A stretch of 64,000 nt of DNA, taken from a virus. The notes beneath the pieces were generated by a model, which was given only the letters and a program-made list of their open reading frames with translations, was not told where the DNA came from and searched no databases. The position numbers were made by a program, and so were the translations under genes. Positions 5,952 to 19,465 of this stretch are shown piece after piece (the first letter of the stretch is position 1; each line of letters starts with the position of its first letter). The DNA is taken from positions 1 to 64,000 of IMG/VR virus record IMGVR_UViG_3300042545_001484, one strand, 5' to 3'.

Positions 5952-6026
5952 ACTCCTGTAGCTCAACGGTAGAGCCGACCGCTCATAACGGTTTGGTTAG
6001 GGGTTCGAATCCCTTCGGGAGTACCA
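5952..6026 (+). tRNA. tRNA with CAT anticodon (elongator Met or Ile-lysidine type)
   Basis: Acceptor actcctg/cgggagt with a G-U pair; loop cuCAUaa. No three G-C pairs in the anticodon stem, so not an initiator. Confidence 0.75.
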
Positions 6027-6029
6027 ATT

Positions 6030-6107
6030 GTGTCGATGGCAGAGTGGTCAAATGCAAAGGACTGCAAATCCTTCCAGTCGTGGGTTCGAATCCCACTCGG
6101 CACTCCA
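6030..6107 (+). tRNA. tRNA-Cys (GCA)
   Basis: Acceptor gtgtcga/tcggcac; anticodon stem aagga/tcctt with loop cuGCAaa; GGTTCGAATCC; CCA encoded. Confidence 0.75.
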
Positions 6108-6129
6108 TTTTTAATTTGAGGATTTAAAT

Positions 6130-6708: not shown

Positions 6709-6715
6709 AATTTCT

Positions 6716-7150
6716 ATGGAGAAAGTCAGACAATGCGGTGATTGCACTGCATGCTGCGAAGGTTGGCATATGGGGAGCGTTCTGGGATATGATATGTTCC
6801 CAGGACGACCCTGTCAATTTTTATGCAATGGATGCACTATCTACGAAGATAGACCAAAGGATCCTTGCATTGACTATTCTTGTGATTGGCTACGGCAAGA
6901 TGTATTCCCAGAATGGATGCGTCCTGACATCTCAAAGGTTATTATTACTACTAGAGAATGGCAGGATGGATTATATTATGAATTCAGAGAAACTGATGCA
7001 ATAATCAGTTCTCAGATTCTTGCTTGGATCTATGAATTTGGCGCAAAACAAAACCACAATATGAGAGTTATGATCAATAATTACTGGCACAATTATGGTT
7101 CTGTTGAATTTTGTAATGCAGTATCAAACACCTCTGTAGCTCAACGGTAG
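6716..7150 (+). CDS. Cys-rich hypothetical protein (about 12 Cys in the first 60 aa); 3' end overlaps tRNA 7130
   Basis: CGDCTACCEGW...CQFLCNGC...CIDYSC pattern suggests metal binding. The stop lies inside the following tRNA. Confidence 0.45.
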   Translation: MEKVRQCGDCTACCEGWHMGSVLGYDMFPGRPCQFLCNGCTIYEDRPKDPCIDYSCDWLRQDVFPEWMRPDISKVIITTREWQDGLYYEFRETDAIISSQILAWIYEFGAKQNHNMRVMINNYWHNYGSVEFCNAVSNTSVAQR

Positions 7151-7204
7151 AGCATTCGCTTCATACGCGAAAGGTTGTTGGCTCGAGTCCAACCAGAGGT
7201 ACCA
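7130..7204 (+). tRNA. second tRNA with CAT anticodon (Met/Ile2)
   Basis: Acceptor acctctg/cagaggt; anticodon stem ttcgc/gcgaa with loop uuCAUac; CCA encoded. Confidence 0.75.
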
Positions 7205-7205
7205 T

Positions 7206-7282
7206 GTCCCGTTCGTCTAGCGGTCTAGGACACTGCCCTTTCACGGCAGAGATCAGGGGTTCGAATCCCCTACGGGATACCA
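7206..7282 (+). tRNA. tRNA-Glu (TTC)
   Basis: Close to the E. coli tRNA-Glu sequence pattern (GTCCC.TTCGTCTAG...CCCTTTCACGG...); CCA encoded. Confidence 0.9.
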
Positions 7283-7283
7283 T

Positions 7284-7359
7284 ACGGGTATAGCTCAGCT
7301 GGTAGAGCAAACGACCGATAATCGTTAGGTCACAGGTTCGAACCCTGTTACCCGTACCA
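7284..7359 (+). tRNA. tRNA-Ile (GAT)
   Basis: Acceptor acgggta/tacccgt; loop ccGAUaa; CCA encoded. Confidence 0.85.
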
Positions 7360-7387
7360 ATTTGTTTATTAGGTTTTGTAAAAACAA

Positions 7388-7888
7388 ATGTTAAAAAATC
7401 AAAGAAACCTACTCCTTGGAGTGCCTAAGTGTGGGTCCACAACTGCCAGAGAATTTCTAGTTGGTGAGCGAGTAAGCATATTAGAACCTCATATACTATA
7501 CCAAGATATACAAGGGGAGTTCGATAATGTGTATGCATTTTGGAGAGACCCTGTAGATCGGTTTAAGTCTGCTGTGAAGTTCTTTAATGAGACTGACGAG
7601 GATGGAACAGTATGGGATGCTAGAGAGATTATTACAGGCTTAATGTCTGGCGACCCTCCTTTAATGCTCTTTAAACCTCAGTGTGAGTGGTATAAGAATG
7701 TGCCGAATTTAACGATTCTTCCCTTCTCTGAGTACGAAACTAGTATTAGATTTCTAGAGACCATATTTGGGTCTACAGGCGCTGATATACCTAGACTACA
7801 TAAAACAGTAACATTCTTAGAACTTGACGATGATCTGGAAGAAATGGTAAGAAATTACTATAAAGAGGATTATGAGTACGTGTGCTAA
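7388..7888 (+). CDS. sulfotransferase-like protein (166 aa)
   Basis: 5'-PSB-like motif GVPKCGSTT and 3'-PB-like motif RDPVDRFKS, which are the PAPS-binding signatures of sulfotransferases. Short for the family. Confidence 0.45.
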   Translation: MLKNQRNLLLGVPKCGSTTAREFLVGERVSILEPHILYQDIQGEFDNVYAFWRDPVDRFKSAVKFFNETDEDGTVWDAREIITGLMSGDPPLMLFKPQCEWYKNVPNLTILPFSEYETSIRFLETIFGSTGADIPRLHKTVTFLELDDDLEEMVRNYYKEDYEYVC

Positions 7889-7916
7889 GTTTGATGGACG
7901 ATTTTTGAAAATACTT

Positions 7917-7955
7917 CTTGCTTTATTTTTAATTCTAGGTTAGAGTGAATAATAG
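7917..7955 (+). promoter_or_regulatory. conserved promoter cassette (TTGCTT, 17 bp, TAGAGT, GAATAATAGGA)
   Basis: Precedes gene 7959. Confidence 0.6.
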
Positions 7956-7958
7956 GAA

Positions 7959-8174
7959 ATGAAGGAATTCGAAATGGAAGTTTTTGCATTGTTAGGTGAG
8001 TTTGATCACCACGGTTCGCTGTTGTTGGGCGTGTATGCATCTGAAGAAGAAGCACGGACTGCCTACGGTGTGTATACTCGTGACGGCGATCAATTCATCG
8101 ATTTTTACTACATCGAGCATCGTGTAGTCGGCGCTCCTGTAGATTCCGAACGTCATCGGATCTACATCGGTTAA
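7959..8174 (+). CDS. hypothetical protein (71 aa)
   Basis: Promoter plus ATG; acidic. Confidence 0.5.
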   Translation: MKEFEMEVFALLGEFDHHGSLLLGVYASEEEARTAYGVYTRDGDQFIDFYYIEHRVVGAPVDSERHRIYIG

Positions 8175-8182
8175 AGTTTAAT

Positions 8183-8258
8183 GGACCCTTAGCTCAGTCG
8201 GTAGAGCATCGGACTCTTAATCCGCAGGTCGTTGGTTCGAATCCAACAGGGTCTACCA
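8183..8258 (+). tRNA. tRNA-Lys (CTT)
   Basis: Acceptor ggaccct/agggtct; loop cuCUUaa (one mismatch at the top of the anticodon stem); CCA encoded. Confidence 0.8.
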
Positions 8259-8262
8259 ATTC

Positions 8263-8338
8263 GGACGGTTAGCTCAGTAGGTAGAGCAACGGGCTTTTAA
8301 CCTGTGTGTCCTGGGTTCAAACCCCAGACCGTCCACCA
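8263..8338 (+). tRNA. tRNA-Lys (TTT)
   Basis: Acceptor ggacggt/accgtcc; loop cuUUUaa; CCA encoded. Confidence 0.85.
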
Positions 8339-8352
8339 TTTTTGGAGATTGT

Positions 8353-8530
8353 TATGGGTAAAATGATTTTTGCTTTCTTGTCAATGTGTATAATTTTATA
8401 TACAAGCATTGATATTTTCCGTCGGCTGACCGGAAAAGAAAAGATGGAGTTTGTTAAGTTGGCCAGTTACTCGTTGGGCATTGCGACAATCGCGTCGCTA
8501 TTTGCTCTTGCTATTATCGTTTTGTTTTAA
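8353..8530 (+). CDS. small hydrophobic membrane protein (59 aa), possible NfeD-like partner of the SPFH protein
   Basis: MGKMIFAFLSMCIILY...IATIASLFALAIIVLF, two predicted TM helices. Immediately upstream of the SPFH gene. Confidence 0.45.
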
Positions 8531-8542
8531 GGAAGATATATT

Positions 8543-9340
8543 ATGAATCGTATTGCTAAGATTGCTGTGCTCGCTGGTCTCATGGCTACGACTGCTGCTT
8601 GTACTCGAATTGAAACAGGTGAAGTAGGTGTTCGTCGTGCTATCGACAAGACCATTGAAACCACAGAGTTGATGCCAGGATCAATCAACCAGACACTGTT
8701 TGGCGATGTTATGACGTTTCCTACCAAGGACGTTTCTGTTGACGTTGCTGACTTGACTCCACTCGCGTCAGATAACTCGACCGTTGCTGACTTCGACATG
8801 GCAGTCATCTACTCGATCAATCCAGGTTCGGTTGCCGAACTCTACATCGAGAAGAATCGTGGCTTCCACGCTGACACCGAAGAAGGTGATACGCTGTTGA
8901 TGTATAACTACATTCGTCAGTTGGGTCGTAATGCTGCATACAAGGTTGCTCGTCGCTACGAGTCACTGAAGATGGCAGACAATCGTGCTGAAATCGAACA
9001 GCTTGTTCGTCAGGAAATTATTGCAAGCCTCGCATCTGAAAAGCTAGATAACTCAATTTCTATCTCACAGGTTCTGGTTCGTCAGGTCAAGCCTGCAGCC
9101 AATATCGTGCAGTCTGCTAACCTTTTGGTCCAAGCGCAAAATGAAAACAAGCGTAAGGAAGTAGAAGTTTCTACTGCAAAACTTGAAGCACAGCGTATCT
9201 CTGCATTGAATGCTAACGCTGGCGCAACTAAGTATATGGAAGCTACTGCTATCGTGACGATTGCTGAAGCGATTAAGGACGGCAAGGTTAACACCATCGT
9301 TGTTCCTTATGACTTCAAGGGTATTGTCAACGTAAAGTAA
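8543..9340 (+). CDS. SPFH/band-7 (stomatin/prohibitin-like) domain lipoprotein
   Basis: Signal peptide with a lipobox (TTAAC). Band-7 pattern KDVSVDVADLTPLASDNSTVADFDMAVIYSINP followed by a coiled-coil region. Confidence 0.55.
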   Translation: MNRIAKIAVLAGLMATTAACTRIETGEVGVRRAIDKTIETTELMPGSINQTLFGDVMTFPTKDVSVDVADLTPLASDNSTVADFDMAVIYSINPGSVAELYIEKNRGFHADTEEGDTLLMYNYIRQLGRNAAYKVARRYESLKMADNRAEIEQLVRQEIIASLASEKLDNSISISQVLVRQVKPAANIVQSANLLVQAQNENKRKEVEVSTAKLEAQRISALNANAGATKYMEATAIVTIAEAIKDGKVNTIVVPYDFKGIVNVK

Positions 9341-9346
9341 GACATA

Positions 9347-9435
9347 GGAACGTGGGCAGGACGGTAATGCAGCAGACTGCTAATCTGTACTACCTGTAAA
9401 GGGTAGACTGGGTTCGACTCCCAGACGTTCCGCCA
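9347..9435 (+). tRNA. tRNA-Ser (GCT), type II
   Basis: Acceptor ggaacgt/acgttcc; loop cuGCUaa; long variable arm; CCA encoded. Confidence 0.85.
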
Positions 9436-9542
9436 AGTTTGCGTGGTTTGTTTGCATAGAAAAGAGATGAGGTCGACCTTATGTAACCCCATTGAGCAAA
9501 CAGTAATACAGAGCAGCGGGGACTGTTCCACACAGAGTTTAT

Positions 9543-9618
9543 GGTGGTCGAGGTGTTAATGGATACATGCTGGATTGTGAATCCGGAGTTGCGGGATCGT
9601 TACCCGTCGATCACCCCA
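9543..9618 (+). tRNA. tRNA-His (GTG) with encoded G(-1)
   Basis: 8-bp acceptor stem including G-1:C73 (ggtggtcg/cgatcacc), the His identity feature. Loop uuGUGaa. Variant T-loop ATCGTTA. CCA encoded. Confidence 0.75.
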
Positions 9619-9619
9619 T

Positions 9620-9697
9620 GGGGGTATAGGCCAATTGGTTAGAGTCAGGGGACTTAAAATCCCCACAGTGTGGGTTCGAGTCCCACTACCCCTACCA
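9620..9697 (+). tRNA. atypical tRNA, anticodon TAA (Leu, UUA) but class-I architecture
   Basis: Acceptor gggggta/tacccct; anticodon stem gggga/tcccc with loop cuUAAaa; canonical GGTTCGAGTCC T-arm. Only a 3-bp D-stem can be drawn and the variable arm is 5 nt; bacterial tRNA-Leu is normally type II. Confidence 0.5.
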
Positions 9698-9708
9698 TAA
9701 AATAGTGC

Positions 9709-9745
9709 TTGACATATTATTTATTTCGAGTTATAGTGAATTATA
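9709..9745 (+). promoter_or_regulatory. conserved promoter cassette variant (TTGACA, 17 bp, TATAGT) ahead of the structured RNA and tRNA-Thr/Ala
   Basis: Consensus-like sigma70 hexamers at 17-bp spacing. Confidence 0.55.
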
Positions 9746-9794
9746 GTGAGAAAATCACTAAATACGTTGCTCTTTGAAATTGTTAGACCTTTTA

Positions 9795-9912
9795 GATGAC
9801 CACACTGGAAGTTCCTGTGGCGACCAAGCGCTCGGGGGAAGATAGGAACGTAAAGAGCGAAATTACTGCCAGTGTGCGTGGCAACATCTCAGTAGCCAGT
9901 GTGGTCATTTAA
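9795..9912 (+). ncRNA. candidate small structured RNA 1 in the tRNA cluster
   Basis: A 13-bp perfect long-range stem (ATGACCACACTGG...CCAGTGTGGTCAT) encloses about 90 nt with internal hairpins. No ORF. Lies between a promoter and tRNA-Thr. Reminiscent of the T4 stable RNAs C and D. Confidence 0.3.
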
Positions 9913-9922
9913 GAAGTTTACT

Positions 9923-9998
9923 GCCCTTATAGCTCAGTTGGTAGAGCACCTGCCTTGTAAGCAGGGGGTCTGGGGTTCGAGTCCTCATGAGGGCACCA
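9923..9998 (+). tRNA. tRNA-Thr (TGT)
   Basis: Acceptor gccctta/tgagggc; loop cuUGUaa; CCA encoded. Confidence 0.85.
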
Positions 9999-10147
9999 TT
10001 ATTCTAGGATATGAATATGAGAAGCGAATCTGCAGAATGTGTGATGTATGTGCCCGATACACCTTTGAATCGTGCGGCATTTACAGATGAAACGGTTTTA
10101 GCAGAGATATATAAAGTTTCGAATATTAAAATTGTGTTTAAAGAATT

Positions 10148-10223
10148 GGGGGATTAGCTCAGCTGGGAGAGCGTCTGCCTTGCACGCAGAAGGTCAACGG
10201 TTCGATCCCGTTATCCTCCACCA
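10148..10223 (+). tRNA. tRNA-Ala (TGC)
   Basis: G3-U70 identity pair; very close to E. coli tRNA-Ala (GCTCAGCTGGGAGAGC...TTGCACGCAG...). CCA encoded. Confidence 0.9.
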
Positions 10224-10227
10224 TTAT

Positions 10228-10360
10228 AGACCACCTCTGCTGAACCTCGTGGGAAACCACATAGAGAAAAGGGTAGCGCTTGCTGTTGCAACAGTAAAGA
10301 CTATCTAGGAAGATCAAGCGTCCGGAAGTAATTGATCAAGGCACACTGTGGGTGGTCGCT
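10228..10360 (+). ncRNA. candidate small structured RNA 2 in the tRNA cluster
   Basis: Terminal stem AGACCACC...GGTGGTCG with the same GACCAC motif as RNA 1; internal palindrome ctgttgcaacag. No ORF. Between tRNA-Ala and the radical SAM gene. Confidence 0.3.
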
Positions 10361-10377
10361 CATAAAAAGGAATTAAA

Positions 10378-11394
10378 ATGTTATCTTCTAGCGACAGTAA
10401 TATGACTTATGTGCAATCTAGACTCGCCAAGGCGAAGATCAAAATGCTTCAGCTTGATGTGTTTGGATTCTGTAATGCCAAATGTTGGTATTGCCCTGTA
10501 AGATATATTCCTCAGCCAGAAGAAGGCATGGTTCAAATGCCTTTGGAAACTGTCGAGAAAATCTTCAAGCAATTTGTAGAAGAACGAGACAAAGAAGAAG
10601 GTGTTGTTGATCGCAGCTTTAGTTTGTTTATGACAACTCATTATAGCGAGATTCTTTTGTATAAGGATTTTGCTGGGCTGTTGGAACTTGCCAGAAAATA
10701 TAAGCTGCAGACTTTTATTCTCAGTAATGGTATGAACCTGAACAAAGAAAAAGTCGATCTGATCAAAGAGTATAAAGATGTTGTTCCTCATATTGGGCTG
10801 AACATTCCTGCTTTTGAGAAGGAACTGTGGGCAAAGCGTGCTGGGTTTCCTGAAAGACGGTTCGACGAATTGATGGAGAATCTGGATTATGCAGGAGAAA
10901 CTCTGCATGGGCTTATAGAACTCAATATCCATGTCAACGGTGTTAACACTGAAGATTTCAATGGTCGAACAACCAAAGGTCCAAAGTTTGACGAACTTGA
11001 TATTAACTTAGACAGAGAACATGGCGAGTGGGAACGACAGTGGGTGATCGCTGATCGAAGGTTCCCCAAGTTTAATGTCGGCAAAGGTTCGTTGATGGAT
11101 CGCACTGGTTTGCTTTCTGATTATATTTCTAACAAAGAGATGCAGGAACGCAGACTCGAGACTCGCACCGTTGTCGGTTGTGGAAATTGGGGCGACAGAA
11201 CCACCGAATGGCTGCATATCAATGCAGCAGGTGACGTGATTCTTTGTTGTAACGATTATAATTTCGACTATAAGTTTGGAAACATTAACACCCAAACTAT
11301 TCGAGAAATTTGGGGCAGCGATGCCCATGCCGCTACAGTTGAACGAGCATATCGTGAGATATGTGCAAATTGTACGGCAGCAATAATTATCTAA
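10378..11394 (+). CDS. radical SAM enzyme with a C-terminal SPASM/twitch-like Cys-rich domain
   Basis: CxxxCxxC (CNAKCWYC) near the N-terminus. C-terminal cluster VVGCGNWGD...LCCND...ICANC. 338 aa. Confidence 0.7.
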   Translation: MLSSSDSNMTYVQSRLAKAKIKMLQLDVFGFCNAKCWYCPVRYIPQPEEGMVQMPLETVEKIFKQFVEERDKEEGVVDRSFSLFMTTHYSEILLYKDFAGLLELARKYKLQTFILSNGMNLNKEKVDLIKEYKDVVPHIGLNIPAFEKELWAKRAGFPERRFDELMENLDYAGETLHGLIELNIHVNGVNTEDFNGRTTKGPKFDELDINLDREHGEWERQWVIADRRFPKFNVGKGSLMDRTGLLSDYISNKEMQERRLETRTVVGCGNWGDRTTEWLHINAAGDVILCCNDYNFDYKFGNINTQTIREIWGSDAHAATVERAYREICANCTAAIII

Positions 11395-11486
11395 TTGACT
11401 CCGACCTCTGGTTTAAGTTCCGACCTGAACTGACAGGCGGTAACATTTGTGTCCTAGGAAACGCATTTGTTAAGGAGTTTTTATTT

Positions 11487-11562
11487 GCCTTTGTAGCTCA
11501 GTTGGTAGAGCAGTGGATTGAAGATCCACGTGTCGGGGGTTCGACTCCCTCCGAAGGCACCA
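11487..11562 (+). tRNA. tRNA-Phe (GAA)
   Basis: Acceptor gcctttg/cgaaggc; loop uuGAAga; CCA encoded. Confidence 0.85.
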
Positions 11563-11651
11563 GTTAATAGCTAAACTACTCGCATACCGTATGGTGTATG
11601 GAGTCTGTCGTGAATGTTTAGCACGTGTATCGAGACGTGAGATACTCCTAT

Positions 11652-11734
11652 GCGGGTATGGTGGAATTGGCAGACACACTAGTTTTAGGTACTAGCGCTT
11701 CGGCGTGGGGGTTCAAGTCCCTCTACCCGTACCA
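11652..11734 (+). tRNA. tRNA-Leu (TAG), type II
   Basis: Acceptor gcgggta/tacccgt; loop uuUAGgu; long variable arm; CCA encoded. Confidence 0.85.
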
Positions 11735-11740
11735 TTTTAA

Positions 11741-11825
11741 GGGTCGGTAAAGCCAGTGGCTCTGGCAGTCGGACTGTAAATCCGATCCGTCTTCGGGGGA
11801 GGATCGATACCTCACTGACCCACCA
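11741..11825 (+). tRNA. tRNA-Tyr (GTA), type II
   Basis: Acceptor gggtcgg/ctgaccc with a G-U pair; loop cuGUAaa; long variable arm; variant T-loop ATCGATA; CCA encoded. Confidence 0.75.
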
Positions 11826-11827
11826 TT

Positions 11828-11903
11828 GGGGGCGTAGCTCAATCGGGAGAGCACCAGCTTGTCACGCTGGAGGTAGTGGGATCGAAACCCATCGTCCTCG
11901 CCA
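11828..11903 (+). tRNA. tRNA-Asp (GTC)
   Basis: Acceptor gggggcg/cgtcctc with two G-U pairs; loop uuGUCac; CCA encoded. Confidence 0.8.
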
Positions 11904-11918
11904 CTAAATAAGTTTAAT

Positions 11919-11993
11919 GCGGATGTAACTCAGTGGTAGAGTGTCAGCCTTCCAAGCTGTTCGTCGTCGGTTCGATCCCGATCATCCGCTCCA
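11919..11993 (+). tRNA. tRNA-Gly (TCC)
   Basis: Acceptor gcggatg/catccgc; loop cuUCCaa; resembles E. coli tRNA-Gly2; CCA encoded. Confidence 0.85.
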
Positions 11994-11999
11994 CTTTTG

Positions 12000-12080
12000 C
12001 CCAAGTATCCCTCTCCGCTACGAACGGAGCCAAAGGTAACTGGAAGTAAGATGCAGGTTCGAATCCTGTCGAGGGCTCCA
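12000..12080 (+). pseudogene. degenerate tRNA-like element: intact T-arm, 3' acceptor strand and CCA, an Arg(ACG)-type anticodon hairpin, but no canonical 5' acceptor or D-arm
   Basis: GCAGGTTCGAATCCTGT, then CGAGGGC-T-CCA, but no complementary 5' strand. Hairpin ctccg-CUACGAA-cggag. Could not be folded into a cloverleaf. Confidence 0.3.
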
Positions 12081-12085
12081 TATAT

Positions 12086-12162
<77 letters not shown>

Positions 12163-12168
12163 GTTTTT

Positions 12169-12243
12169 GTCGGTGTGGTGAAATGGCTATCATTACGGTC
12201 TCCAAAACCGTCGTTCCGAGTTCGAGTCTCGGCACCTTCGCCA
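12169..12243 (+). tRNA. tRNA-Trp (CCA) with two mismatches in the acceptor stem
   Basis: D-arm, anticodon stem acggt/accgt with loop cuCCAaa, and T-arm are canonical. Acceptor gtcggtg/caccttc has C3-U70 and U2-U71 mismatches. Confidence 0.55.
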
Positions 12244-12258
12244 GTTTTTAGGTGATTT

Positions 12259-12696
12259 ATGTTTGATGAAGCAAAGAAGGCAATTATAGAATCAAGCGAC
12301 ACTTCTACAATTTATGTTGGTGCCGATAGCATTCGATATAAAAAGAACAAGGAGTGGTGGGCAAAGTATTCGACCGTGATCATCCTGCACAAGGATTCGA
12401 AGCATGGTTGTCAGCTTTGGCACAATTCGGTTGACATGCGCGACTACGGAAACCTTCGTCAAAGAATGATCACCGAAGCTGGATTTGCGATCCAAGCAGC
12501 AACAGAAATTATTGATGTTGTTGGCGATCGCAAACTAGAAATTCACCTTGACATCAATCCTGATCCTAAGCACAAATCTAGTATTGCGATAAAAGAAGCA
12601 TTGGGATATGTCAAAGGAACTACTGGTCTTGATGCAAAAGTTAAACCTGAGGCATTTGCTGCAACGCATGCAGCTGACCATATGGTAAGAAGTTAA
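12259..12696 (+). CDS. hypothetical protein inside the tRNA cluster (145 aa), possible RNase-H-like nuclease fold
   Basis: IYVGADS, VIILH and EIHLDINPDP segments loosely resemble the acidic catalytic segments of RNase-H-like nucleases. Ends 2 nt before tRNA-Val. Weak call. Confidence 0.5.
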   Translation: MFDEAKKAIIESSDTSTIYVGADSIRYKKNKEWWAKYSTVIILHKDSKHGCQLWHNSVDMRDYGNLRQRMITEAGFAIQAATEIIDVVGDRKLEIHLDINPDPKHKSSIAIKEALGYVKGTTGLDAKVKPEAFAATHAADHMVRS

Positions 12697-12697
12697 T

Positions 12698-12773
12698 GCG
12701 GGATTAGCTCAGTTGGTAGAGCGTCTGCTTTACACGCAGAATGTCGGCAGTTCGAGCCTGTCATCCCGTACCA
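12698..12773 (+). tRNA. tRNA-Val (TAC)
   Basis: Acceptor gcgggat/atcccgt (G1-U72); loop uuUACac; CCA encoded. Confidence 0.85.
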
Positions 12774-12966
12774 AATATCTGGACCGACGGGTCTAGTAAG
12801 AAGTGTGACTGAATAATCCCCTCGTCAGTGGGGATAAAGTAGACTCGGGGATTGGTCTCCTGCTTAACCAGCTAACGAGTCGTGGGTCGAGATTACAGAT
12901 AGTAATTGACTGGACCTTGGAGGTATACCTAAATCCTCCCACTTCGCTTTTATTATAAATAGATGC

Positions 12967-13254
12967 ATGCAATATGATGTTATCTTTCAACTGATCGCCG
13001 ATGTCGGCTTCCCCATCGCAGCTTGTTTGCTCGGTGGGGTTTTCGTGTATTTTGTGATCAACTATATTCTTGAGAGTGTTTTGAAAGCAATCAAAGGAAT
13101 GCAAGGTATCATTATGGGGTTGGACAACCGAGTGAAAACTATGAACCACGACATTATTCGTGTTGATGCTGTAGTTAGTTCTGCTCTTGGTCTTCGACCT
13201 GATTTGGATAGAATCGCCCGAGCAGATGGAAAGAATGATGCTCGGAGGGACTGA
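12967..13254 (+). CDS. small membrane protein, paralog A (95 aa): N-terminal TM helix plus C-terminal helix
   Basis: Tandem paralog of 13254..13520: GFPIAACLLGGVFVYFVINYI versus GFPIVASVGMGYFVFFIYKFV, and a conserved NRV/DRI...MxxDIIR segment. Confidence 0.5.
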   Translation: MQYDVIFQLIADVGFPIAACLLGGVFVYFVINYILESVLKAIKGMQGIIMGLDNRVKTMNHDIIRVDAVVSSALGLRPDLDRIARADGKNDARRD

Positions 13255-13520
13255 TGGATCCACAAGTTGTTGCGGAGTTAATAAAACAATATGGTTTCCC
13301 GATCGTAGCGTCTGTGGGAATGGGTTACTTTGTATTCTTTATCTATAAGTTTGTTACTGACAGATTAATGCCTCTGATTGGTGAAACAAATGTAATTTTG
13401 ATCGCACTGATTGATCGTATTAGAATGTTGGACAATGATCTAATTAGGTTACAACAAAAGGTTAACGTTGTGCTGCAGGTTCACGAGGAGCATAAAAATG
13501 CAAGTAAATCTAAAGATTGA
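13254..13520 (+). CDS. small membrane protein, paralog B (88 aa)
   Basis: See paralog A; start overlaps the stop of A. Confidence 0.5.
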   Translation: MDPQVVAELIKQYGFPIVASVGMGYFVFFIYKFVTDRLMPLIGETNVILIALIDRIRMLDNDLIRLQQKVNVVLQVHEEHKNASKSKD

Positions 13521-13576
13521 AATCCTCAAAGTCTTCGAGCTCAACTTTTCTTTTTGTTCAAACAAAAAAATAAAGG

Positions 13577-14029
13577 ATGGGAAAGATGCTAAAACGAGTG
13601 ACGGCACTAATGCTGCTCCTGACAAGCAGCCACCTGCAAGCAAGTGAACTGGTCCATCAATTTAAAAATCCTTCATTCTCTGGCGTCAATGCTGGAGCGC
13701 AATGGCTGACGATTGAAAATCAAGAGACTCTGCGTAAAAAAACTATACAGGACAAGATAGAAGCTGATTTGAAAGCAAAGGCTCTCGAAGAAAAAAACTC
13801 TATTTTGAATCGTTTCTTGAATAACTTGCAGTCTCGTATCTATTCTCAGCTGGCACAACAGCTTACCAATAATTTGTTTGGCGAAGATGGCGGAGAGGCT
13901 GGAGAATTCATACTCGAAGGCAACACTATCAAGTATGAAAAAACTGAAACAGAAATTAAACTTGTGATCATTGATGCAGCTGGCAATCAAACTGAGATTA
14001 TAGTTCCAACAAGTGGATTCAAGTGGTAA
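13577..14029 (+). CDS. csgF: CsgF-like curli assembly protein
   Basis: Signal peptide. The mature N-terminus ELVHQFKNPSFSGVNAGAQWLTIENQ matches the E. coli CsgF N-terminus ([28 protein letters not shown]). Stop overlaps the csgG start (TAATG). Confidence 0.6.
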   Translation: MGKMLKRVTALMLLLTSSHLQASELVHQFKNPSFSGVNAGAQWLTIENQETLRKKTIQDKIEADLKAKALEEKNSILNRFLNNLQSRIYSQLAQQLTNNLFGEDGGEAGEFILEGNTIKYEKTETEIKLVIIDAAGNQTEIIVPTSGFKW

Positions 14030-14841
14030 TGTGGAAGATTCTATTATTACCTTTTCTTCTGTGTGGTTGCGTGGCATCTGGACCTGTTGGTCTTCAATTA
14101 AAAGAAGATGCAAAGATTGTAAAGACACAAGTCAAAGAATTATACAACCTTCCTGCGCCTGACAGACAAGCAGTAGTAGCGGTTTATGACTTTCCTGATA
14201 TGACAGGTCAACGCAGAGATAAAGATGGTATTGCCAGCATATCAACTGCAGTCACACAAGGCGGAACACCACTATTAATTTCTGCTTTGAGGGATGCAGG
14301 TGGAGGAACATGGTTTAGAGTTGTAGAACGAAATCGTGTCGAGGATCTTGCCAAAGAACGTCAGATTGTTAGACAGACTCGTGAAGAATATCTTGGTGAG
14401 GGTGCAAATAAACTCGAACCAATGCTGTTCGCTGGGCTCATCATCCAAGGTGGTATTATCGGGTATGATAGTAACATACAGACAGGCGGAGCAGGAGCAA
14501 GATATCTTGGTGTAGGAGGCTCTGTCGTCTACCGAAAAGATCAGGTTGTTGTTTCTCTGCGAGGAGTCAACACTAATACTGGAGAAGTTGTTCTTAATGT
14601 GCAAGTTTCTAAAACAGTATTATCTGTCGGTAAAGATCTGTCACTGTTTAAATTTGTCGATGTTGGCACAAAATTGGTGGAAGCCGAAGCAGGCATGACC
14701 GAAAATGAAGCCAACACCATGGCAGTCAAAATGGCGATTGAAGAAGCAGTTTTACAATTGATAAAACAGGGTATCGAGAAAGGATATTTTAAGTTCGCAC
14801 CGAAGATCGATATCGATCGATCGGTATCATTAAAGGAATAA
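14029..14841 (+). CDS. csgG: CsgG curli secretion channel lipoprotein
   Basis: Lipobox LLCGC. Long collinear similarity to E. coli CsgG: LPAP...VAVYDFPDMTGQ, LISALRDAGGGTWFRVVERNRVEDLAKERQI, GGIIGYDSNIQTGGAGARYLGVGG, VNTNTGEVVLNV. Confidence 0.85.
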   Translation: MWKILLLPFLLCGCVASGPVGLQLKEDAKIVKTQVKELYNLPAPDRQAVVAVYDFPDMTGQRRDKDGIASISTAVTQGGTPLLISALRDAGGGTWFRVVERNRVEDLAKERQIVRQTREEYLGEGANKLEPMLFAGLIIQGGIIGYDSNIQTGGAGARYLGVGGSVVYRKDQVVVSLRGVNTNTGEVVLNVQVSKTVLSVGKDLSLFKFVDVGTKLVEAEAGMTENEANTMAVKMAIEEAVLQLIKQGIEKGYFKFAPKIDIDRSVSLKE

Positions 14842-14846
14842 GGGTA

Positions 14847-15542
14847 ATGAAAAATAAAATAGCTCTTTTCATTATGTTTCTGATGACGAGTTCGGTGAGT
14901 TTTGCACAAACAACAACCAACTCGATTTTTATTGATCAGGTCGGTGATAGTAGCACTATTACTATTACCCAAAAAGGTCAAACCAACAGCATCGGTTCTG
15001 AGCAGAATCGAGTAGTAATTGAAGGTAATAACCAAACAGTTACAGTCAAACAAGAAGGTAATGGAAACATTATCCAAGGCTCTATTGTTCAAGCAGATAA
15101 TGTCGATAAGGATGTTACTGTTACTGGCGACAACAATAAGTTGACGTATGACGAAGGCGATAGCGGTAGTGTGGCTGGATCCACCAAAACACTTACAGTG
15201 ACTGGGGATTCAAACGACTTGACCTTTAATCAGGGTACAGCGGCATCAGCCACTAATGCTACACAAACTATCGCAATCACTGGTGACACCAACACAATGA
15301 CATCCACCATAAATGCGGATGATGTGGTGAACACTAAGACTATTGTTGGTGATGGTAATACTATTACTACGCTGCAGAATGGCAATGCTGGGAAGAATAT
15401 TGAATTGGTTCTTACAGGCAGTACAAATACATTAACAATAAATCAGCAGAGCACAACAAATGTTGACACACTTAAAGTTGATAGCACGAGCAACGGCAGC
15501 ACTATTACTATTAATCAGTGCAACGCAGGTGGTCCATGCTAA
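14847..15542 (+). CDS. secreted curlin-repeat-like (CsgA/CsgB-type) beta-solenoid protein
   Basis: Signal peptide. About 8 imperfect ~22-aa repeats of the form x-I-x-I-x-Q-x-G-x-x-N-x-I (IDQVGDSSTITITQKGQTNSIGSEQ...) reminiscent of curlin repeats. C-terminal Cys pair. Confidence 0.5.
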   Translation: MKNKIALFIMFLMTSSVSFAQTTTNSIFIDQVGDSSTITITQKGQTNSIGSEQNRVVIEGNNQTVTVKQEGNGNIIQGSIVQADNVDKDVTVTGDNNKLTYDEGDSGSVAGSTKTLTVTGDSNDLTFNQGTAASATNATQTIAITGDTNTMTSTINADDVVNTKTIVGDGNTITTLQNGNAGKNIELVLTGSTNTLTINQQSTTNVDTLKVDSTSNGSTITINQCNAGGPC

Positions 15543-16551
15543 TATTGGTAAGGTAACTCAAACTCGAGGTTCGAGCGAAGTTGTGAAGAAAACTGCAAAG
15601 GTTCCTTCACGACTTCAGTTACCTATTGCCAAGATGGACAAAGTGCAGACTGGAAACGGTAGAGTCGAGATAACTTTTTTAGACGACTCTACCGTCAAAG
15701 TCACTGAAAATTCTAGGCTTGTTGTTGATGATTTTGTTTACAGCGGCAATCCATCAACATCAAAAATGGTTCTCAAATTTGCTTCGGGGACTGCCAGATT
15801 TGCGACAGGTAAATCCGGAAAAATCAACAAAGGCAATATTAATCTGAGAACACCAACAGCCACGATTGCTGTTCGTGGAACAGACTTTGCGACCACAGTC
15901 GATGATTTTGGAAAGAGTTTGGTCATCCTTCTGCCAGAGGAAGATGGATCAGTTGGTGAGATTACTGTTTCAAATGCTGCTGGCTCAGTCATTTTGACCA
16001 GAGCGTTTCAAGCGACCATAGTATCAACCACAGACAGCAGACCTACTCGTCCAGTCATTCTGAATATGTCACTTGATCAAATTGATAATATGCTCATCGT
16101 AGCACCTGCCGAAGAATTCAAGACTGAGGAGGAATTGAGAGATATCAGGACTAACATGCTGGATCTCTCTGAACTTGATGTAGATTTCCTTGCCAAAGAT
16201 GATCTACAAGAAAATGCACTTGCAAGTTCGGATCTTGATATTAATGCAATCGATGCAAATTACCTCGGCGAAGACTTTTTAGACAATGCTTTAGGAGCAG
16301 ATAATTGTGTCACCAGAGAAGACACCAAGTTGTGCGGAACAACATTTGGGCTAGATAATACTACACAGATAACTACAATTCTTTCTGGAGATTATCTACG
16401 GCTCGTTCGGACACTAAGTAGTACTGTTGACATTGTTGTCAAAAAAGATTCAAACAAAACATTATACATAGATAGTAATGGAAAGTCATTTCTAATCGAA
16501 GTAAATCAACCATCGGGCGGGACTATTATAAATGTCAAACAAAGCGATTAA
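15460..16551 (+). CDS. FecR-domain protein with signal peptide; overlaps the curlin-like gene by 83 nt in another frame
   Basis: Signal peptide ...LLLLISATQVVHA. FecR-like segment GTARFATGKSGKINKGNINLRTPTATIAVRGTDF. FecR-domain proteins commonly partner CHASE2 sensors. Confidence 0.6.
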   Translation: MLTHLKLIARATAALLLLISATQVVHANIGKVTQTRGSSEVVKKTAKVPSRLQLPIAKMDKVQTGNGRVEITFLDDSTVKVTENSRLVVDDFVYSGNPSTSKMVLKFASGTARFATGKSGKINKGNINLRTPTATIAVRGTDFATTVDDFGKSLVILLPEEDGSVGEITVSNAAGSVILTRAFQATIVSTTDSRPTRPVILNMSLDQIDNMLIVAPAEEFKTEEELRDIRTNMLDLSELDVDFLAKDDLQENALASSDLDINAIDANYLGEDFLDNALGADNCVTREDTKLCGTTFGLDNTTQITTILSGDYLRLVRTLSSTVDIVVKKDSNKTLYIDSNGKSFLIEVNQPSGGTIINVKQSD

Positions 16552-18613
16552 AATTTTATTGTCTCCGTGGTTGGTACTGATCACATTTGCGCTACTGCTT
16601 GTAGTAAAGCTACAAGATCCATTTTTGGTTGAAGCGTCTCGCCTTAAATTTTATGACTACATCATGCTGGATACACCAAAGCAATCTGAGCAGATTGTAG
16701 TCGCTAATTTAGGGGAGAAATCAATTGAAAAATATGGTCAGTGGCCTTTCCCGAGGGAAGTCCATGCTAAAATCATTGGCGATATATACAGCAGAGGGGC
16801 TGGCGCTGTTGGCAGCACTATACTTATGCCTGAGCCTGACCGCTTGGGGACTGATAGAGTTCTTGCGAATGCTCTAAGCGAATATCCAGTTGTACTCAGT
16901 CAGACTGTTTCCGCTGACTGTATTGCTGGATCGACCACTGGCCGAGGTTCACCTCAGGCAAGTGCGACAATTCGGAAGACAGGCGTTGCCGTAATCGGCG
17001 ATGGAGAACCAACTGAATTTCTTCCTCAATATCCATGCGTTCTAAGTAATATTGCACCTCTGCAAGAAGCCGCTGTCGGTGTTGGGATAACATCAACATT
17101 ACCTGAGGCAGACGGGGTCGTACGGCGAGTTCCTCTTCTAGCACAATCATCTGGCGAATACTATCCCGCATTTGCTCTAGAGATGCTGCGTGTAGCTGCT
17201 GGAGATCCGTCATATCAAGCGAAGATAAATCAGACGGGAGTTGAGGCATTACGAATTCCTTCCTTCGAAACAATTAAAACTGATGAATATGGTCGAGTGT
17301 TCGTCAATCCGAACTATAAATTTGCGTCATTCGAAATTGGTGACAAGGCTTTGCCTGATCTGACAGGTAAAATTGTGATACTTGGCGTAACTGCCGCTGG
17401 TATCGCGAATCCTGTAGCGACTCCACAAGGTGCGCAGTATCCCCATCAGTTGCAAGCGTCAATTCTTCAGACTCTGATAAATGGTGATTCGGTTGCGATT
17501 CCTCTGTGGGGGCAACTTGCTGATCTTGGTGCATTTGTTTTTGTTTGCCTGTCATTGATTGTTGTTTCTCGTTTCCGCTATTCAATTATATATATCGCCG
17601 TGATCATGGGCGGATATCTGTATCTACCATTCTATTTATTTACCAAAGAACACATCCTTTTTGATGTGTCGTTCAATATTGCTGCTGCACTGTTTGTATA
17701 TATACATCTATATACTGCCAAGTTTATCAGCGAATTCCTACAAAAGCAACAGATTAAGAAACAGTTTGGCACGTATCTGTCGCCAGACTTGGTTGCTCAG
17801 CTGCAGAAACAGCCAGAGTTACTCAAGCTAGGTGGAACAAAACAACAGTTGTCGATTATGTTTACTGATGTTCGTGGCTTCACTACTATTTCCGAACACT
17901 ATGGCGAAGACGTTGAAGGTCTTACTTCCATAATGAATAGATATATGACTGTGATGACAAGAGCTATTCTGGAAAACAAAGGAACACTTGATAAGTATAT
18001 TGGTGACGCACAGATGGCTTTCTGGAATGCACCAGTAGATAACCCTCAACATGCTTTGGATTCGGTGCGCACTGCTTTCCAGATGCTAAAAGACCTGGAG
18101 ATATTTAATGGCGAAATTAAAGGGGAAGGCATTCCAGCTTTCGGTATGGGTCTTGGTATTAACACTGCCACTGTGGTTGTTGGTAATATGGGCAGCGACC
18201 AGCGTTTTGATTACACTTGCTTGGGTGATGGGGTTAATTTGGCTGCTCGCCTCGAAGGTCAAACCAAACCTTATGGGGTCAAACTCATCGTCGGACCACA
18301 AACTGCCGAACTGGTTAGGGATGTATACCAAGTAATTGAACTTGATTTGATTGCTGTTAAAGGCAAAACTGAACCAGCTCGAATCTATACAGTTCTTGAA
18401 GAAAAGAACGAAAAGGCTGAAATTGCTCACAACAGATTCCTGGATGCATATCGCTCAGGTGATTGGGGCAGAGCCATGGCCATGGCATATGAAATGGGTC
18501 CATTGTGGAATGGAGAACTCAAAGGCTACTACGAAGCCATGCTCGATCGTATGAACGAAGCCAAAGCTGCTCCTAAAAATTGGGATGGTGTTTATCGCGC
18601 AACCTCAAAATAA
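16532..18613 (+). CDS. CHASE2 sensor, transmembrane region, class III adenylate/guanylate cyclase
   Basis: N-terminal TM then CHASE2 pattern (KYGQWPFPREVHAKII). 4-5 TM helices mid-protein. Cyclase motifs FTDVRGFTTISE, YIGDAQMAFW, GLGINTATVVVGNMGS, GDGVNLAARLEG. Confidence 0.8.
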   Translation: MSNKAIKILLSPWLVLITFALLLVVKLQDPFLVEASRLKFYDYIMLDTPKQSEQIVVANLGEKSIEKYGQWPFPREVHAKIIGDIYSRGAGAVGSTILMPEPDRLGTDRVLANALSEYPVVLSQTVSADCIAGSTTGRGSPQASATIRKTGVAVIGDGEPTEFLPQYPCVLSNIAPLQEAAVGVGITSTLPEADGVVRRVPLLAQSSGEYYPAFALEMLRVAAGDPSYQAKINQTGVEALRIPSFETIKTDEYGRVFVNPNYKFASFEIGDKALPDLTGKIVILGVTAAGIANPVATPQGAQYPHQLQASILQTLINGDSVAIPLWGQLADLGAFVFVCLSLIVVSRFRYSIIYIAVIMGGYLYLPFYLFTKEHILFDVSFNIAAALFVYIHLYTAKFISEFLQKQQIKKQFGTYLSPDLVAQLQKQPELLKLGGTKQQLSIMFTDVRGFTTISEHYGEDVEGLTSIMNRYMTVMTRAILENKGTLDKYIGDAQMAFWNAPVDNPQHALDSVRTAFQMLKDLEIFNGEIKGEGIPAFGMGLGINTATVVVGNMGSDQRFDYTCLGDGVNLAARLEGQTKPYGVKLIVGPQTAELVRDVYQVIELDLIAVKGKTEPARIYTVLEEKNEKAEIAHNRFLDAYRSGDWGRAMAMAYEMGPLWNGELKGYYEAMLDRMNEAKAAPKNWDGVYRATSK

Positions 18614-18616
18614 TCC

Positions 18617-18655
18617 TTGCTTTATTTTAAAAAATGGGGTATAGTGAATTATTGA
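18617..18655 (+). promoter_or_regulatory. conserved promoter cassette (TTGCTT, 17 bp, TATAGT)
   Basis: Immediately after the cyclase stop; precedes gene 18668. Confidence 0.6.
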
Positions 18656-18667
18656 TTGAGAGGTTAT

Positions 18668-18898
18668 ATGATGCAAGTTTCTGGAGTAAGTCCTTATCGA
18701 ACTCCTGTTGCTCTTCCTGGAATAAATTTCAGCGAAGAACACCATCTGGTCGGTTTCACTTGGCCCTATATAAATTCAAAAGGTAAACAATACAACACAA
18801 CCATGGTTGCAACTGGTTGGGTGTGTGATTGTATGGGATTCAACTTCCACGGTAAATGTAAGCATATTACCTTGGTTCATCAAAAGGTTTCGTCATGA
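18668..18898 (+). CDS. small SWIM-type zinc-finger protein
   Basis: CxCx9CxH (WVCDCMGFNFHGKCKHI). Confidence 0.45.
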   Translation: MMQVSGVSPYRTPVALPGINFSEEHHLVGFTWPYINSKGKQYNTTMVATGWVCDCMGFNFHGKCKHITLVHQKVSS

Positions 18899-19308
18899 TT
18901 ATTCAGAATGCTGTAACGTGTCTAGGCTGCGGAGACTTCATCGTCTCTAAGCACCGTCACGATTTTGTAACTTGCACCTGTGGCTCTATCTCGGTGGATG
19001 GTGGGCAAGCATACCTTCGTCGGGTCGGTGACTTTGCAAACGCTGTCGATCATTCGTGGGAACTTCCTGATGAATTGTATCGTCAATGTGCTGATGCGGT
19101 AGAAGAAGCTATTGAAACCAATCGTAATAAGTTTGGTATTGCCAATGCTGTATTGCGTAGGCTTCGATCAGCTGCTCGTATTGTAGCAGAAGGTGAACAG
19201 CGTGTTATAGCATGTAATACTGAGCTTGATGAGATCATGATCGAAGAGGCTGATGGAACTTACAATCGTTACAAGAAGGTAGTAGACAATGAAACATCCA
19301 GATCCTAA
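18895..19308 (+). CDS. hypothetical zinc-ribbon protein (137 aa)
   Basis: CLGCGD...CTCGS Cys pairs; start overlaps the previous stop. Confidence 0.5.
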   Translation: MIIQNAVTCLGCGDFIVSKHRHDFVTCTCGSISVDGGQAYLRRVGDFANAVDHSWELPDELYRQCADAVEEAIETNRNKFGIANAVLRRLRSAARIVAEGEQRVIACNTELDEIMIEEADGTYNRYKKVVDNETSRS

Positions 19309-19465
19309 GAAACACCAGTTAATCTCTTTTGTAAAGAGTGGTATAAGAATTGCTGCGAGCTGCGTTGCTTGCTTGATGATGAGCAATCCATCTGTTGCCG
19401 TATTCATTCTTGGATTGGGTTACGGTCTCGCAGAGATCGTTGGTGTGTATGAGGAGTTAGTATAA
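19289..19465 (+). CDS. small membrane protein (58 aa), below the ORF-track cutoff
   Basis: Own translation MKHPDPKKHQLISFVKSGIRIAASCVACLMMSNPSVAVFILGLGYGLAEIVGVYEELV; overlaps neighbouring stops and starts. Confidence 0.35.
   Translation: MKHPDPKKHQLISFVKSGIRIAASCVACLMMSNPSVAVFILGLGYGLAEIVGVYEELV

Follow-up and report, generated by a model that had tools for sequence, protein, structure and literature searches.

A phage copy of the viral curli module, with a predicted fibre-secretion system, a putative envelope-sensing adenylate cyclase and relatives in alphaproteobacterial chromosomes

Several groups of phages carry genes related to the curli, or type VIII, secretion system (T8SS). Zaragoza-Solas et al. 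(2020) found a CsgF/CsgG operon in pelagimyophages and proposed that it serves “sibling capture” or forms an uptake pore (PMC7029224). Buchholz et al. (2022) modelled the CsgG/CsgF complex of phage Melnitz and proposed a pore that times lysis (PMC9004378). Wittmers et al. (2022) described the architecture of the “viral T8SS” as one or two genes labelled “HK” (histidine kinase), followed by CsgF, CsgG, CsgA/B, FecR, an optional second CsgA/B and an adenylate cyclase (AC); the authors reported the module from both myo- and podophages, from each of the 65 GOV2 stations and from metatranscriptomes, and inferred its alphaproteobacterial affinity gene by gene (PMC9599517). The viral curli module is among the most widespread unexplained auxiliary gene sets of aquatic phages, and the hosts from which it is known, SAR11 and OM43, are almost intractable. 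Here, we describe a seven-gene copy in positions 1 to 64,000 of the IMG/VR virus record IMGVR_UViG_3300042545_001484. We refer to this whole stretch of 64,000 nt, which was analysed on one strand, as “the window”.

Judged by its sequence, the cassette encodes all parts of a CsgG/CsgF outer-membrane channel, a curlin-type substrate exported by Sec, a periplasmic FecR-domain protein and a CHASE2 sensor joined to an adenylate cyclase that is intact. We put at roughly 60% the probability that these parts make up a full system for secreting fibres, linked to a generator of cyclic AMP (cAMP) that senses the envelope. The seven-gene module itself is already known, and the window is a further instance of a published system. 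What is new is a T4-like lineage distinct from the pelagimyophages, chromosomal relatives of the module, a clue to its hosts, the non-kinase nature of the two small membrane proteins at its head (sm1 and sm2), and signals upstream. An earlier note, made by a model from the letters of the window, had implied that the module was novel and had offered fibre export or a repurposed pore as possible readings; the same genes stand in GenBank in two phages and in the three papers above, which had also raised both readings.

Membership of the window module in the published viral T8SS is well supported. By tblastn, Pelagibacter phage HTVC008M and Methylophilales phage Melnitz both have these genes in an identical order; GenBank labels them there as CsgF, CsgG, curlin-associated protein, FecR-domain protein and adenylate/guanylate cyclase; pelagimyophage metagenome-assembled genomes (MAGs) and HTVC023P-type podophages share genes and order as well. 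Each of the seven proteins has a homologue in HTVC008M and in Melnitz, with 26-49% identity (39-40% for FecR and AC), and the modules of these two phages likewise lack CsgE, CsgC and CsgD. The seven genes stay linked in 32 of the 32 IMG/VR loci, retrieved with the window CsgG, that have enough sequence. The window has the architecture of Wittmers et al. minus the second curlin gene, and its single curlin gene, the ~80-nt overlap between the curlin and FecR genes found in its clade, and a manA RNA and a TATAAATA motif directly upstream set it apart from pelagiphage modules. Melnitz, like the window phage, is T4-like and has a two-piece transfer-messenger RNA (tmRNA). The lineages differ, however: gp6 of the window shares 41.5% identity with its counterpart in Caulobacter phage Cr30 and only ~34% with those of HTVC008M and Melnitz. 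For the module proteins, identities of 63-95% were found with a large clade of uncultured phages, here the window clade. No near-identical DNA was found in GenBank phages for the module or for 40-64 kb.

Three cellular systems offer further comparisons. The window resembles classical curli (CsgG-CsgF-CsgE with CsgA/CsgB in Escherichia coli) in an end-to-end CsgG, the CsgF plug motif and a repeat protein with predicted Sec export, a Q/N/G ladder and a curli-like beta-solenoid model. It differs from classical curli in scoring far below the NCBIfam equivalog cut-offs, in the placement of its CsgG in a separate module clade, and in lacking CsgE, CsgC, CsgD, CsgH and a separate CsgB. In S. meliloti, the CHASE2 cyclases CyaD1, CyaD2 and CyaK make cAMP upon an extracellular protein sensed via NsrA, and Clr reads the cAMP (PMC13001267). 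The cyaD1 locus also encodes the FecR-domain protein SMc02177 and the phosphodiesterase SpdA. It shares with the window the fusion of CHASE2 to a class III cyclase, an alphaproteobacterial setting and a nearby FecR-domain protein, and with two bacterial copies of the module (L036 and L086, below) a nearby SpdA-type Metallophos phosphodiesterase. The outer-membrane partner in S. meliloti is the beta-barrel NsrA rather than CsgG, the locus has neither secretion system nor fibre subunit, and it encodes the CRP-like regulator Clr, of which no counterpart was found in the window. The SpdA-like neighbours of the bacterial copies point to this S. meliloti cascade, the closest analogue of the signalling half that has been studied, which resembles it by analogy and in shared domains. 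Finally, the Burkholderia BiofilmReg operon and Pseudomonas PA4035/PA4036 have, as does the window, a signal-peptide FecR gene that overlaps or abuts a downstream CHASE2 sensor (PMC5192318), so the FecR-CHASE2 pairing is a documented bacterial association, as the earlier note had said. In those operons the output is a histidine kinase with a response regulator and the FecR protein carries LysM, whereas the window has an adenylate cyclase and no LysM.

Table 1. Features of the cassette and of the sequence directly upstream, in window coordinates
Feature	Position	Strand	Description	Match
sm1	12967-13254	+	95 amino acids, single-pass membrane protein	phrog_18771, 3.6e-29
sm2	13254-13520	+	88 amino acids, sm1 paralogue	phrog_18771, 2.1e-30
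CsgF-like protein	13577-14029	+	signal peptide and N-terminal plug motif	Pfam CsgF, 4.2e-22
CsgG	14029-14841	+	predicted outer-membrane lipoprotein channel subunit	Pfam CsgG, 1.1e-47
Curlin-repeat protein	14847-15542	+	predicted secreted, presumed fibre subunit	Pfam Curlin_rpt, 2e-8
FecR-domain protein	15460-16551	+	predicted periplasmic	Pfam FecR, 4.1e-12
CHASE2-class III cyclase	16532-18613	+	predicted membrane protein	CHASE2, 7.8e-37; Guanylate_cyc, 1.2e-16
manA RNA	12780-12949	+		Rfam RF01745, 66.1 bits (gathering score 55.2), E 1e-16
TATAAATA	12954-12961	+	T4 late-promoter-type motif, ends 5 nt before the sm1 ATG	

Proteins of the module

The open reading frame (ORF) positions, the strand and the single co-linear unit given in the earlier note are all as it described them, and the six Pfam domains that it had named were recovered in profile searches, each above its curated cut-off (bits/cut-off: CsgF, 79.2/25.8; CsgG, 162.5/20.8; Curlin_rpt, 34.5/20.7; FecR, 46.8/24; CHASE2, 127.7/26.3; Guanylate_cyc, 61.3/21.9). 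The note had also listed three outcomes that would speak against it, namely failure to recover CsgG or CsgF, a repeat protein modelled as an ordinary tail-fibre-like beta-helix with no Sec signal, and a cyclase without catalytic residues. None of the three was found: profile hidden Markov models recovered both CsgG and CsgF, and the cyclase keeps all its catalytic residues. The genes are tightly packed. sm1 and sm2 overlap by 1 nt, as do CsgF and CsgG (TAATG); 5 nt separate the CsgG stop codon from the curlin start codon; the curlin and FecR genes overlap by 83 nt, and the FecR and cyclase genes by 20 nt. Neither Pfam nor NCBIfam gave a match to CsgE, CsgC or CsgD among the seven module proteins, the rest of the window having been scanned non-exhaustively. 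Hundreds of variants show purifying selection on the genes for the channel, its substrate, the FecR-domain protein and the cyclase.

CsgG aligns end to end with structures of E. coli CsgG (E 5.6e-47, residues 5-263), and its lipobox Cys is kept in all 74 relatives that cover the column; both the lipobox and the collinear similarity had been noted earlier. At the positions of the E. coli constriction residues Y51, N55 and F56 the window has K, S and I, and alphaproteobacterial CsgGs vary there too. An alternative GTG start codon lies at 14023; the gene call of the Joint Genome Institute (JGI) uses the ATG at 14029. The N-terminal motif of the CsgF-like protein, SELVHQFKNPSFSG, fits a plug region (F-x-F-x-N-P-x-F-S/G-G) that is conserved across viral and bacterial homologues, in agreement with the channel-inserting motif that the earlier note had recognized. 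We take this region to be the counterpart of the mature N-terminus of E. coli CsgF, which inserts into the channel.

The curlin-repeat protein has a cleavable signal peptide, and its Q/G/N ladder is invariant across 33 homologues. It was modelled with a mean predicted local distance difference test score (pLDDT) of 78.9 and a predicted template modelling score (pTM) of 0.75, as 17 beta-strands in strand-turn-strand repeats. SufB/D-type helices equal the model's Z, so the predicted fold agrees with curlin without proving curlin; a Foldseek search of the model against the PDB returned nothing significant, the best matches being generic beta-helices (E 0.037). The protein ends in Q-C-N-A-G-G-P-C (15520-15542; Q-C-x5-C), in which the Gln and both Cys are invariant in the 33 homologues. 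E. coli CsgA is not known to end in a comparable pair of Cys; in the window protein, the pair may cap the protein through a disulfide or serve to anchor it.

The FecR-domain protein consists of a signal peptide, a FecR domain (residues 60-155) and an unannotated C-terminal half. The signal peptide is encoded within the overlap with the curlin gene, and each of the 22 distinct N-termini from viral loci has it, as do the bacterial homologues in L036 and L037. Because of this conservation, we regard 15460 as the true start, and the 83-nt overlap reported earlier as real. The JGI call starts 23 codons later, at 15529 (340 amino acids), and drops the signal peptide (15460-15528); many database entries of the family (340-341 amino acids) carry the same shortened start.

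The last gene encodes a CHASE2 domain (residues 21-340) flanked by hydrophobic segments (~4-34 and 321-393), a cyclase domain (437-614) and a C-terminal extension of ~80 amino acids. The best match in the PDB is Pseudomonas aeruginosa CyaB (3r5g, 1.3e-32), and the adenylate cyclases CyaB and CyaC are the best structures. D446, K488, D492, R573 and K610 are invariant in 41 homologues. T562 occupies the second specificity position (Thr, or Ser/Asp, in homologues), and N569 the transition-state position, where 37 of the 41 homologues have Asn. The roles of these residues are well established for class III cyclases, in which Lys together with Thr marks the class IIIb adenylate cyclases. Given Lys and Thr at the specificity positions, we infer that the window cyclase is a class IIIb-type adenylate cyclase with cAMP as its predicted product. 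The earlier note's statement that all class III motifs are present stands (D446, K488, D492, T562, N569, R573); of the cAMP or cGMP output that it had proposed, the specificity residues favour cAMP. The possibility of a pyrimidine cyclase (Pycsar) was rejected: the window protein scores 82.7 bits on the PADLOC PycC model, less than two genuine adenylate cyclases, CyaB (105.6) and CyaC (93.6), so its match is non-specific. PADLOC found no PycTM or other effector in or next to the phage module.

At the other end of the cassette, sm1 is a paralogue of sm2 (26% identity, E 2e-12); both are assigned to phrog_18771 (~1e-30), for which no function is given. Each has one hydrophobic segment and a charged C-terminus. 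sm1 is 49% identical to the ORFs directly upstream of CsgF in HTVC008M and Melnitz, and the range for sm1 and sm2 together is 46-49%. No Pfam domain was found in any of 2453 metagenomic homologues of sm1, and a profile search of 1.84 billion representatives with the sm family gave 591 clusters, of which the best 150 all encode proteins of 61-209 amino acids. sm2 is linked to the module in all viral loci; in one (L031) the sm pair lies on the other side, still adjacent. The family is phage-only and is part of the module in all viral loci, and the earlier note's two paralogous small membrane proteins ahead of the unit thus belong to the seven genes linked in 32 of 32 loci. The label “HK” given to sm1-type genes upstream of CsgF (PMC9599517) was rejected, as none of 58 diverse family members matches HisKA, HATPase_c or HAMP. 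The only recurrent match among the 58 is YvrJ, below threshold in 12. The sole His of the conserved sm1 helix is Asn in Melnitz and in three other loci (L027, L028, L029) and is missing from sm2. With 88-95 amino acids, one transmembrane segment, no kinase domain and no conserved His, sm1 and sm2 are not kinases.

Chromosomal relatives and shared ancestry

A scan with the viral CsgG profile across one genome per GTDB species yielded 50 loci. In the classical curli loci among them, for example those of Microvirga, Methylobacterium, Phenylobacterium, Nitrospinales and Jannaschia, CsgF and CsgG stand alone, and no FecR, CHASE2 or sm gene lies within 10 kb of them. The full seven-gene module was found on 16 MAG contigs of mutually inconsistent taxonomy (L038-L042, L044, L045, L047, L051, L055, L057, L060, L073, L075, L077, L082), whose labels include Flavobacteriales, Sphingobacteriales, Saprospirales, Legionellales, Rhodobacterales and “Candidatus Pelagibacter”. 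Eight of these contigs were examined; all eight have a G+C content of 35-42%, and four carry phage hallmark genes (CobS/CobT, a gp41-type helicase, a portal). On these grounds, we rejected the latter four (L039, L042, L045, L082) as bacterial instances. The full-module contigs are likely phage contigs that were mis-binned into bacterial MAGs.

Three other loci are chromosomal. Two are in Caulobacteraceae MAGs (L036, 82.6 kb; L037, 32 kb) and have CsgF, CsgG, two curlins, FecR and the CHASE2-AC but no sm1 or sm2. Their flanks encode cytochrome c554, TetR, an amidohydrolase, an acyl-CoA dehydrogenase, glycosyltransferases and an S9 peptidase, and outside the module they have no further gene in common with the window. 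The G+C content of the module in these two loci is 52-53%, between the 42% of the phage and the 54-62% of the flanks, i.e., partly ameliorated. The third, in a Sphingorhabdus MAG (L086), was found via its curlin homologue. It has the five-gene core with one curlin, again without sm1 and sm2, and lies between a housekeeping cluster (miaB-phoH-ybeY-corC-...-rarA) and a thiamine pyrophosphate enzyme. Its module proteins are 67-80% identical to those of the window and nest inside the window clade (bootstrap 83-100/100), and its module has a G+C content of 44.7%, versus 56% and 51% in the flanks. This combination of nesting and low G+C is the signature of a recent transfer from phage to bacterium, and the copy seems to be phage-derived DNA that was inserted recently and without sm1 and sm2.

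The L036 and L037 copies are sister to the window clade. In neighbour-joining trees, the split between the window clade with L036/L037 and all others was recovered in 200 of 200 bootstraps for CsgG, 200 for FecR, 197 for AC and 108 for CsgF, and module-linked CsgGs formed a clade of their own, apart from classical CsgGs, in 159 of 200. By these trees, the four genes tested have one phylogenetic history and the block is transferred as a unit. The window module is therefore most closely related to the chromosomal clusters of Caulobacteraceae and Sphingorhabdus, not to the pelagiphages. These CsgF-CsgG-curlin-FecR-CHASE2-AC clusters contradict the published statement that bacterial T8SS operons have no FecR or AC, which is, with the “HK” annotation, the second point on which the literature is corrected. 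Since the core is kept in the chromosomes of L036, L037 and L086, amid housekeeping flanks, it appears to work without phage context and does not depend on it. Gene exchange, together with the affinity to Cr30, suggests Caulobacterales and Sphingomonadales as the likeliest hosts of the window clade. The copies in Caulobacteraceae and Sphingorhabdus and the Cr30-related lineage thus point to genetically tractable alphaproteobacteria in which the module could be tested.

The neighbourhoods of the bacterial copies hold further genes of interest. Metallophos genes flank the module in L036 (8200-9057) and L086 (14100-14948); they are 40% identical to each other, and their best NCBIfam matches, below cut-off, are SpdA (116 and 152 bits) and the cAMP phosphodiesterase CpdA. 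PycTM homologues lie 442 nt after the AC in L037 (14809-15399, 8.8e-25) and ~4.4 kb downstream of the cyclase in L086 (18156-18671); they are 42% identical to each other. In L086, a GAF-GAF cyclase immediately precedes the PycTM, and the catalytic half of this cyclase is paralogous to that of the module. The Sphingorhabdus copy (8773-13731) directly adjoins a gene for tRNA-Thr(TGT) (8389-8464).

Predicted role of the module

A fibre-secretion system with a sensor and a cAMP output, the reading that we favour, would work as follows. The cassette would be transcribed as a separate unit, probably late in infection. Lipidated CsgG would form a nonameric outer-membrane channel, and CsgF, exported by Sec, would place its conserved N-terminus in it. 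The curlin-repeat protein would also leave by Sec, pass through CsgG/CsgF and, once outside, fold and polymerise into a curli-like beta-solenoid fibre at the infected cell's surface. FecR and CHASE2 would act as a periplasmic sensing pair, as in bacterial FecR-CHASE2 operons, and may report the state of the envelope or of secretion, by analogy with NsrA-CyaD1. The cytoplasmic class IIIb domain would then make cAMP, presumably read by CRP/Clr-type regulators of the host since no receptor was found in the window. sm1 and sm2 would be a phage-specific addition, as small inner-membrane adaptor or timing proteins rather than kinases. The net effect would be a remodelled cell surface (aggregation or superinfection shielding) and a change in second messenger.

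A number of observations weigh against this scheme. CsgE, CsgC/H and CsgD are not in the cassette, and the window clade has a single curlin gene with none between FecR and AC, i.e., no separate CsgB-type nucleator. The NCBIfam equivalog cut-offs are missed by a wide margin for CsgG (170.8 vs 505), CsgF (21.3 vs 171) and CsgA (22.2 vs 160), and on these scores the three window proteins are family members, not equivalogs of the E. coli proteins. The AlphaFold2 model of the FecR protein is poor (pLDDT 33, pTM 0.15), its alignment being shallow, with homologues all at least 76% identical. Melnitz-infected cells did not clump (PMC9004378). A phmmer search of all window ORFs with an E. coli CRP sequence, a weak test, found no cAMP receptor. 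TATAAATA lies so close to the sm1 ATG that the sm1 mRNA would be leaderless or nearly so, which is unusual. Contact between FecR, CHASE2 and the channel is suggested purely by analogy, and the fibres, channel and cAMP of the viral copies are predicted from the genes.

Of the alternatives, one reverses the order of importance: CsgG/CsgF and the repeat protein would be an antenna or conduit for signalling, and cAMP would reprogram host metabolism via CRP/Clr-type regulators. Alphaproteobacterial CHASE2 cyclases do need an outer-membrane protein to sense extracellular protein (PMC13001267). SpdA/CpdA-like phosphodiesterases stand beside the L036 and L086 copies, the latter with a second cyclase of the same subfamily, and the cyclase gene is longer than any other in the cassette, with catalytic residues that are invariant in 41 of 41 homologues. 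However, podophage versions sometimes lack the AC, whereas CsgF, CsgG and curlin are universal (PMC9599517), which makes the secretion part the core. With no cAMP-binding protein found in the window, and the SAR11 and OM43 hosts of related phages being regulator-poor, we consider a primarily signalling role unlikely. It is somewhat less probable that CsgG and CsgF form a gated, secretin- or pinholin-like pore that times lysis, with sm1 and sm2 as holin-like partners. Buchholz et al., who proposed this for Melnitz, saw no aggregation (PMC9004378), a late-promoter-type motif precedes sm1, and sm1 and sm2 are small, single-pass proteins with charged C-termini that occur in phage copies only. But a lysis pore would have no need of the Sec-exported curlin substrate and the CsgF plug, which every copy keeps, nor would lysis timing matter in the bacterial chromosomes that retain the core. 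CsgG, moreover, belongs to the outer membrane and holins to the inner, and neither sm1 nor sm2 has a holin match in Pfam, PHROGs or PADLOC. That every copy keeps the substrate and CsgF, and that bacterial chromosomes keep the core, also speaks against import through an ungated CsgG channel that lacks CsgE. Such uptake of nutrients or cofactors during infection has been proposed (PMC7029224, PMC9599517), and the module indeed has no CsgE; classical alphaproteobacterial curli loci, however, are also without CsgE (PMC9599517), so its absence is not special, and the idea leaves CsgF, the secreted repeat protein and the cyclase unexplained. We think it very improbable.

A defensive role, also raised by Wittmers et al. 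for superinfection (PMC9599517), would combine barrier and alarm: fibres would mask receptors, excluding superinfecting phages in infected cells and defending bacteria, and the FecR-CHASE2 cyclase would detect attack on the envelope and raise a cyclic nucleotide, which in bacteria might trigger membrane effectors of the PycTM type. A PycTM homologue occurs within 5 kb in two of the three chromosomal copies (L037 and L086), and L086 is in an island beside tRNA-Thr. These are three bacterial loci only, and the L086 PycTM directly follows a different (GAF) cyclase. In the phage module, PADLOC matched neither PycTM nor anything else, the PycC match of the cyclase is non-specific given the higher scores of CyaB and CyaC, and the specificity residues point to ATP rather than pyrimidines. 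A barrier with an alarm therefore seems an outside chance, slighter than that of a lysis pore. Returning to fibre secretion coupled to cAMP, a more ambitious form of this reading takes the block as a self-contained T8SS subtype with envelope sensor and cAMP output that shuttles as a unit between T4-like phages and the chromosomes of alphaproteobacteria. On the bacterial side, it would land in cyclic-nucleotide or defence islands (SpdA-like phosphodiesterase, PycTM, tRNA-Thr site); on the phage side, it would gain sm1/sm2 together with a late promoter and would serve, by superinfection exclusion or aggregation, to shield infected cells or to signal their state. Taken jointly, these claims are speculative, and we doubt that all of them hold.

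Upstream signals and phage background

Ten copies of TATAAATA occur in the window, compared with 2.0 expected, and none of 100 shuffles reached 10. The copies are concentrated in the structural-gene half (e.g., at 41370, 55088 and 62721), and the enrichment is consistent with T4-type late promoters in the window phage. In the closest sub-clade (L015, L018, L021, L022, L024), the motif likewise ends 5-7 nt before the sm1 ATG. Immediately 5' of it, four of these loci (L018, L021, L022, L024) have a GC hairpin with a T-run, where the window has manA instead. Given this placement, TATAAATA ahead of sm1 is a predicted promoter, and the cassette probably starts its own late transcription unit. A scan of 12200-19400 for generic sigma-70 promoters and intrinsic terminators gave counts not above those of shuffles.

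manA is known from T4-like cyanophages and marine gamma-proteobacteria as an orphan riboswitch candidate (PMC2864571), and manA RNAs self-assemble into 10-mers and 60-mer cages (2026 preprint, 10.64898/2026.07.01.735769). The window copy covers the full-length model and sits between tRNA-Val and sm1, ending 17 nt before the latter. At gathering threshold, manA was also found in L017, L018, L021 and L022, always after the last tRNA and 0.5-1.7 kb upstream of sm1 with ORFs intervening, and not in HTVC008M, Melnitz or eight other loci. The position after manA, which is taken by sm1 in the window, is held in these relatives by a peroxiredoxin-like gene or by small transmembrane proteins. The former is an ORF of 196-207 amino acids directly 3' of manA (L017 804-1427, L021 1926-2516, L022 5781-6371), and the label “peroxiredoxin-like” is based solely on the motif PGAFTPTCS. 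Because manA follows the tRNA block and the neighbouring gene varies, a role as dedicated regulator of the module is not supported; manA is possibly a 5' element of the unit.

The surrounding window is that of a T4-like myophage, with gp6/gp7-like baseplate wedge proteins, a gp5-like hub lysozyme, PhoH and NrdA, a G+C content of 43% and 23 tRNA genes (5590-12773 and 35532-35934). Of the latter, 21 form one block just upstream of the module, and within this block lie ORFs for a radical-SAM protein (10378-11394) and, between tRNA-Trp and tRNA-Val, a phrog_11311 protein (12259-12696). The two-piece (permuted, alpha-type) tmRNA, at 31894-32352 (+), encodes the tag peptide ANDNDVAFALAA, and is of the kind seen in Melnitz. 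Melnitz has a glutamine riboswitch (L002 1225-1273) beside its tmRNA; none was found beside the window tmRNA at gathering threshold. Phages of the window clade also occur on contigs of 320-357 kb, about twice the length of the 160.7-kb contig in JGI metagenome 3300044716 to which the window belongs; they are either concatemeric assemblies or much larger genomes. One of these (L089; CACUVW010000001.1, 346.7 kb) also carries ART-PolyVal, ferritin and Phage_DsbA, and has a gene for an outer-membrane protein beta-barrel right after the cyclase.

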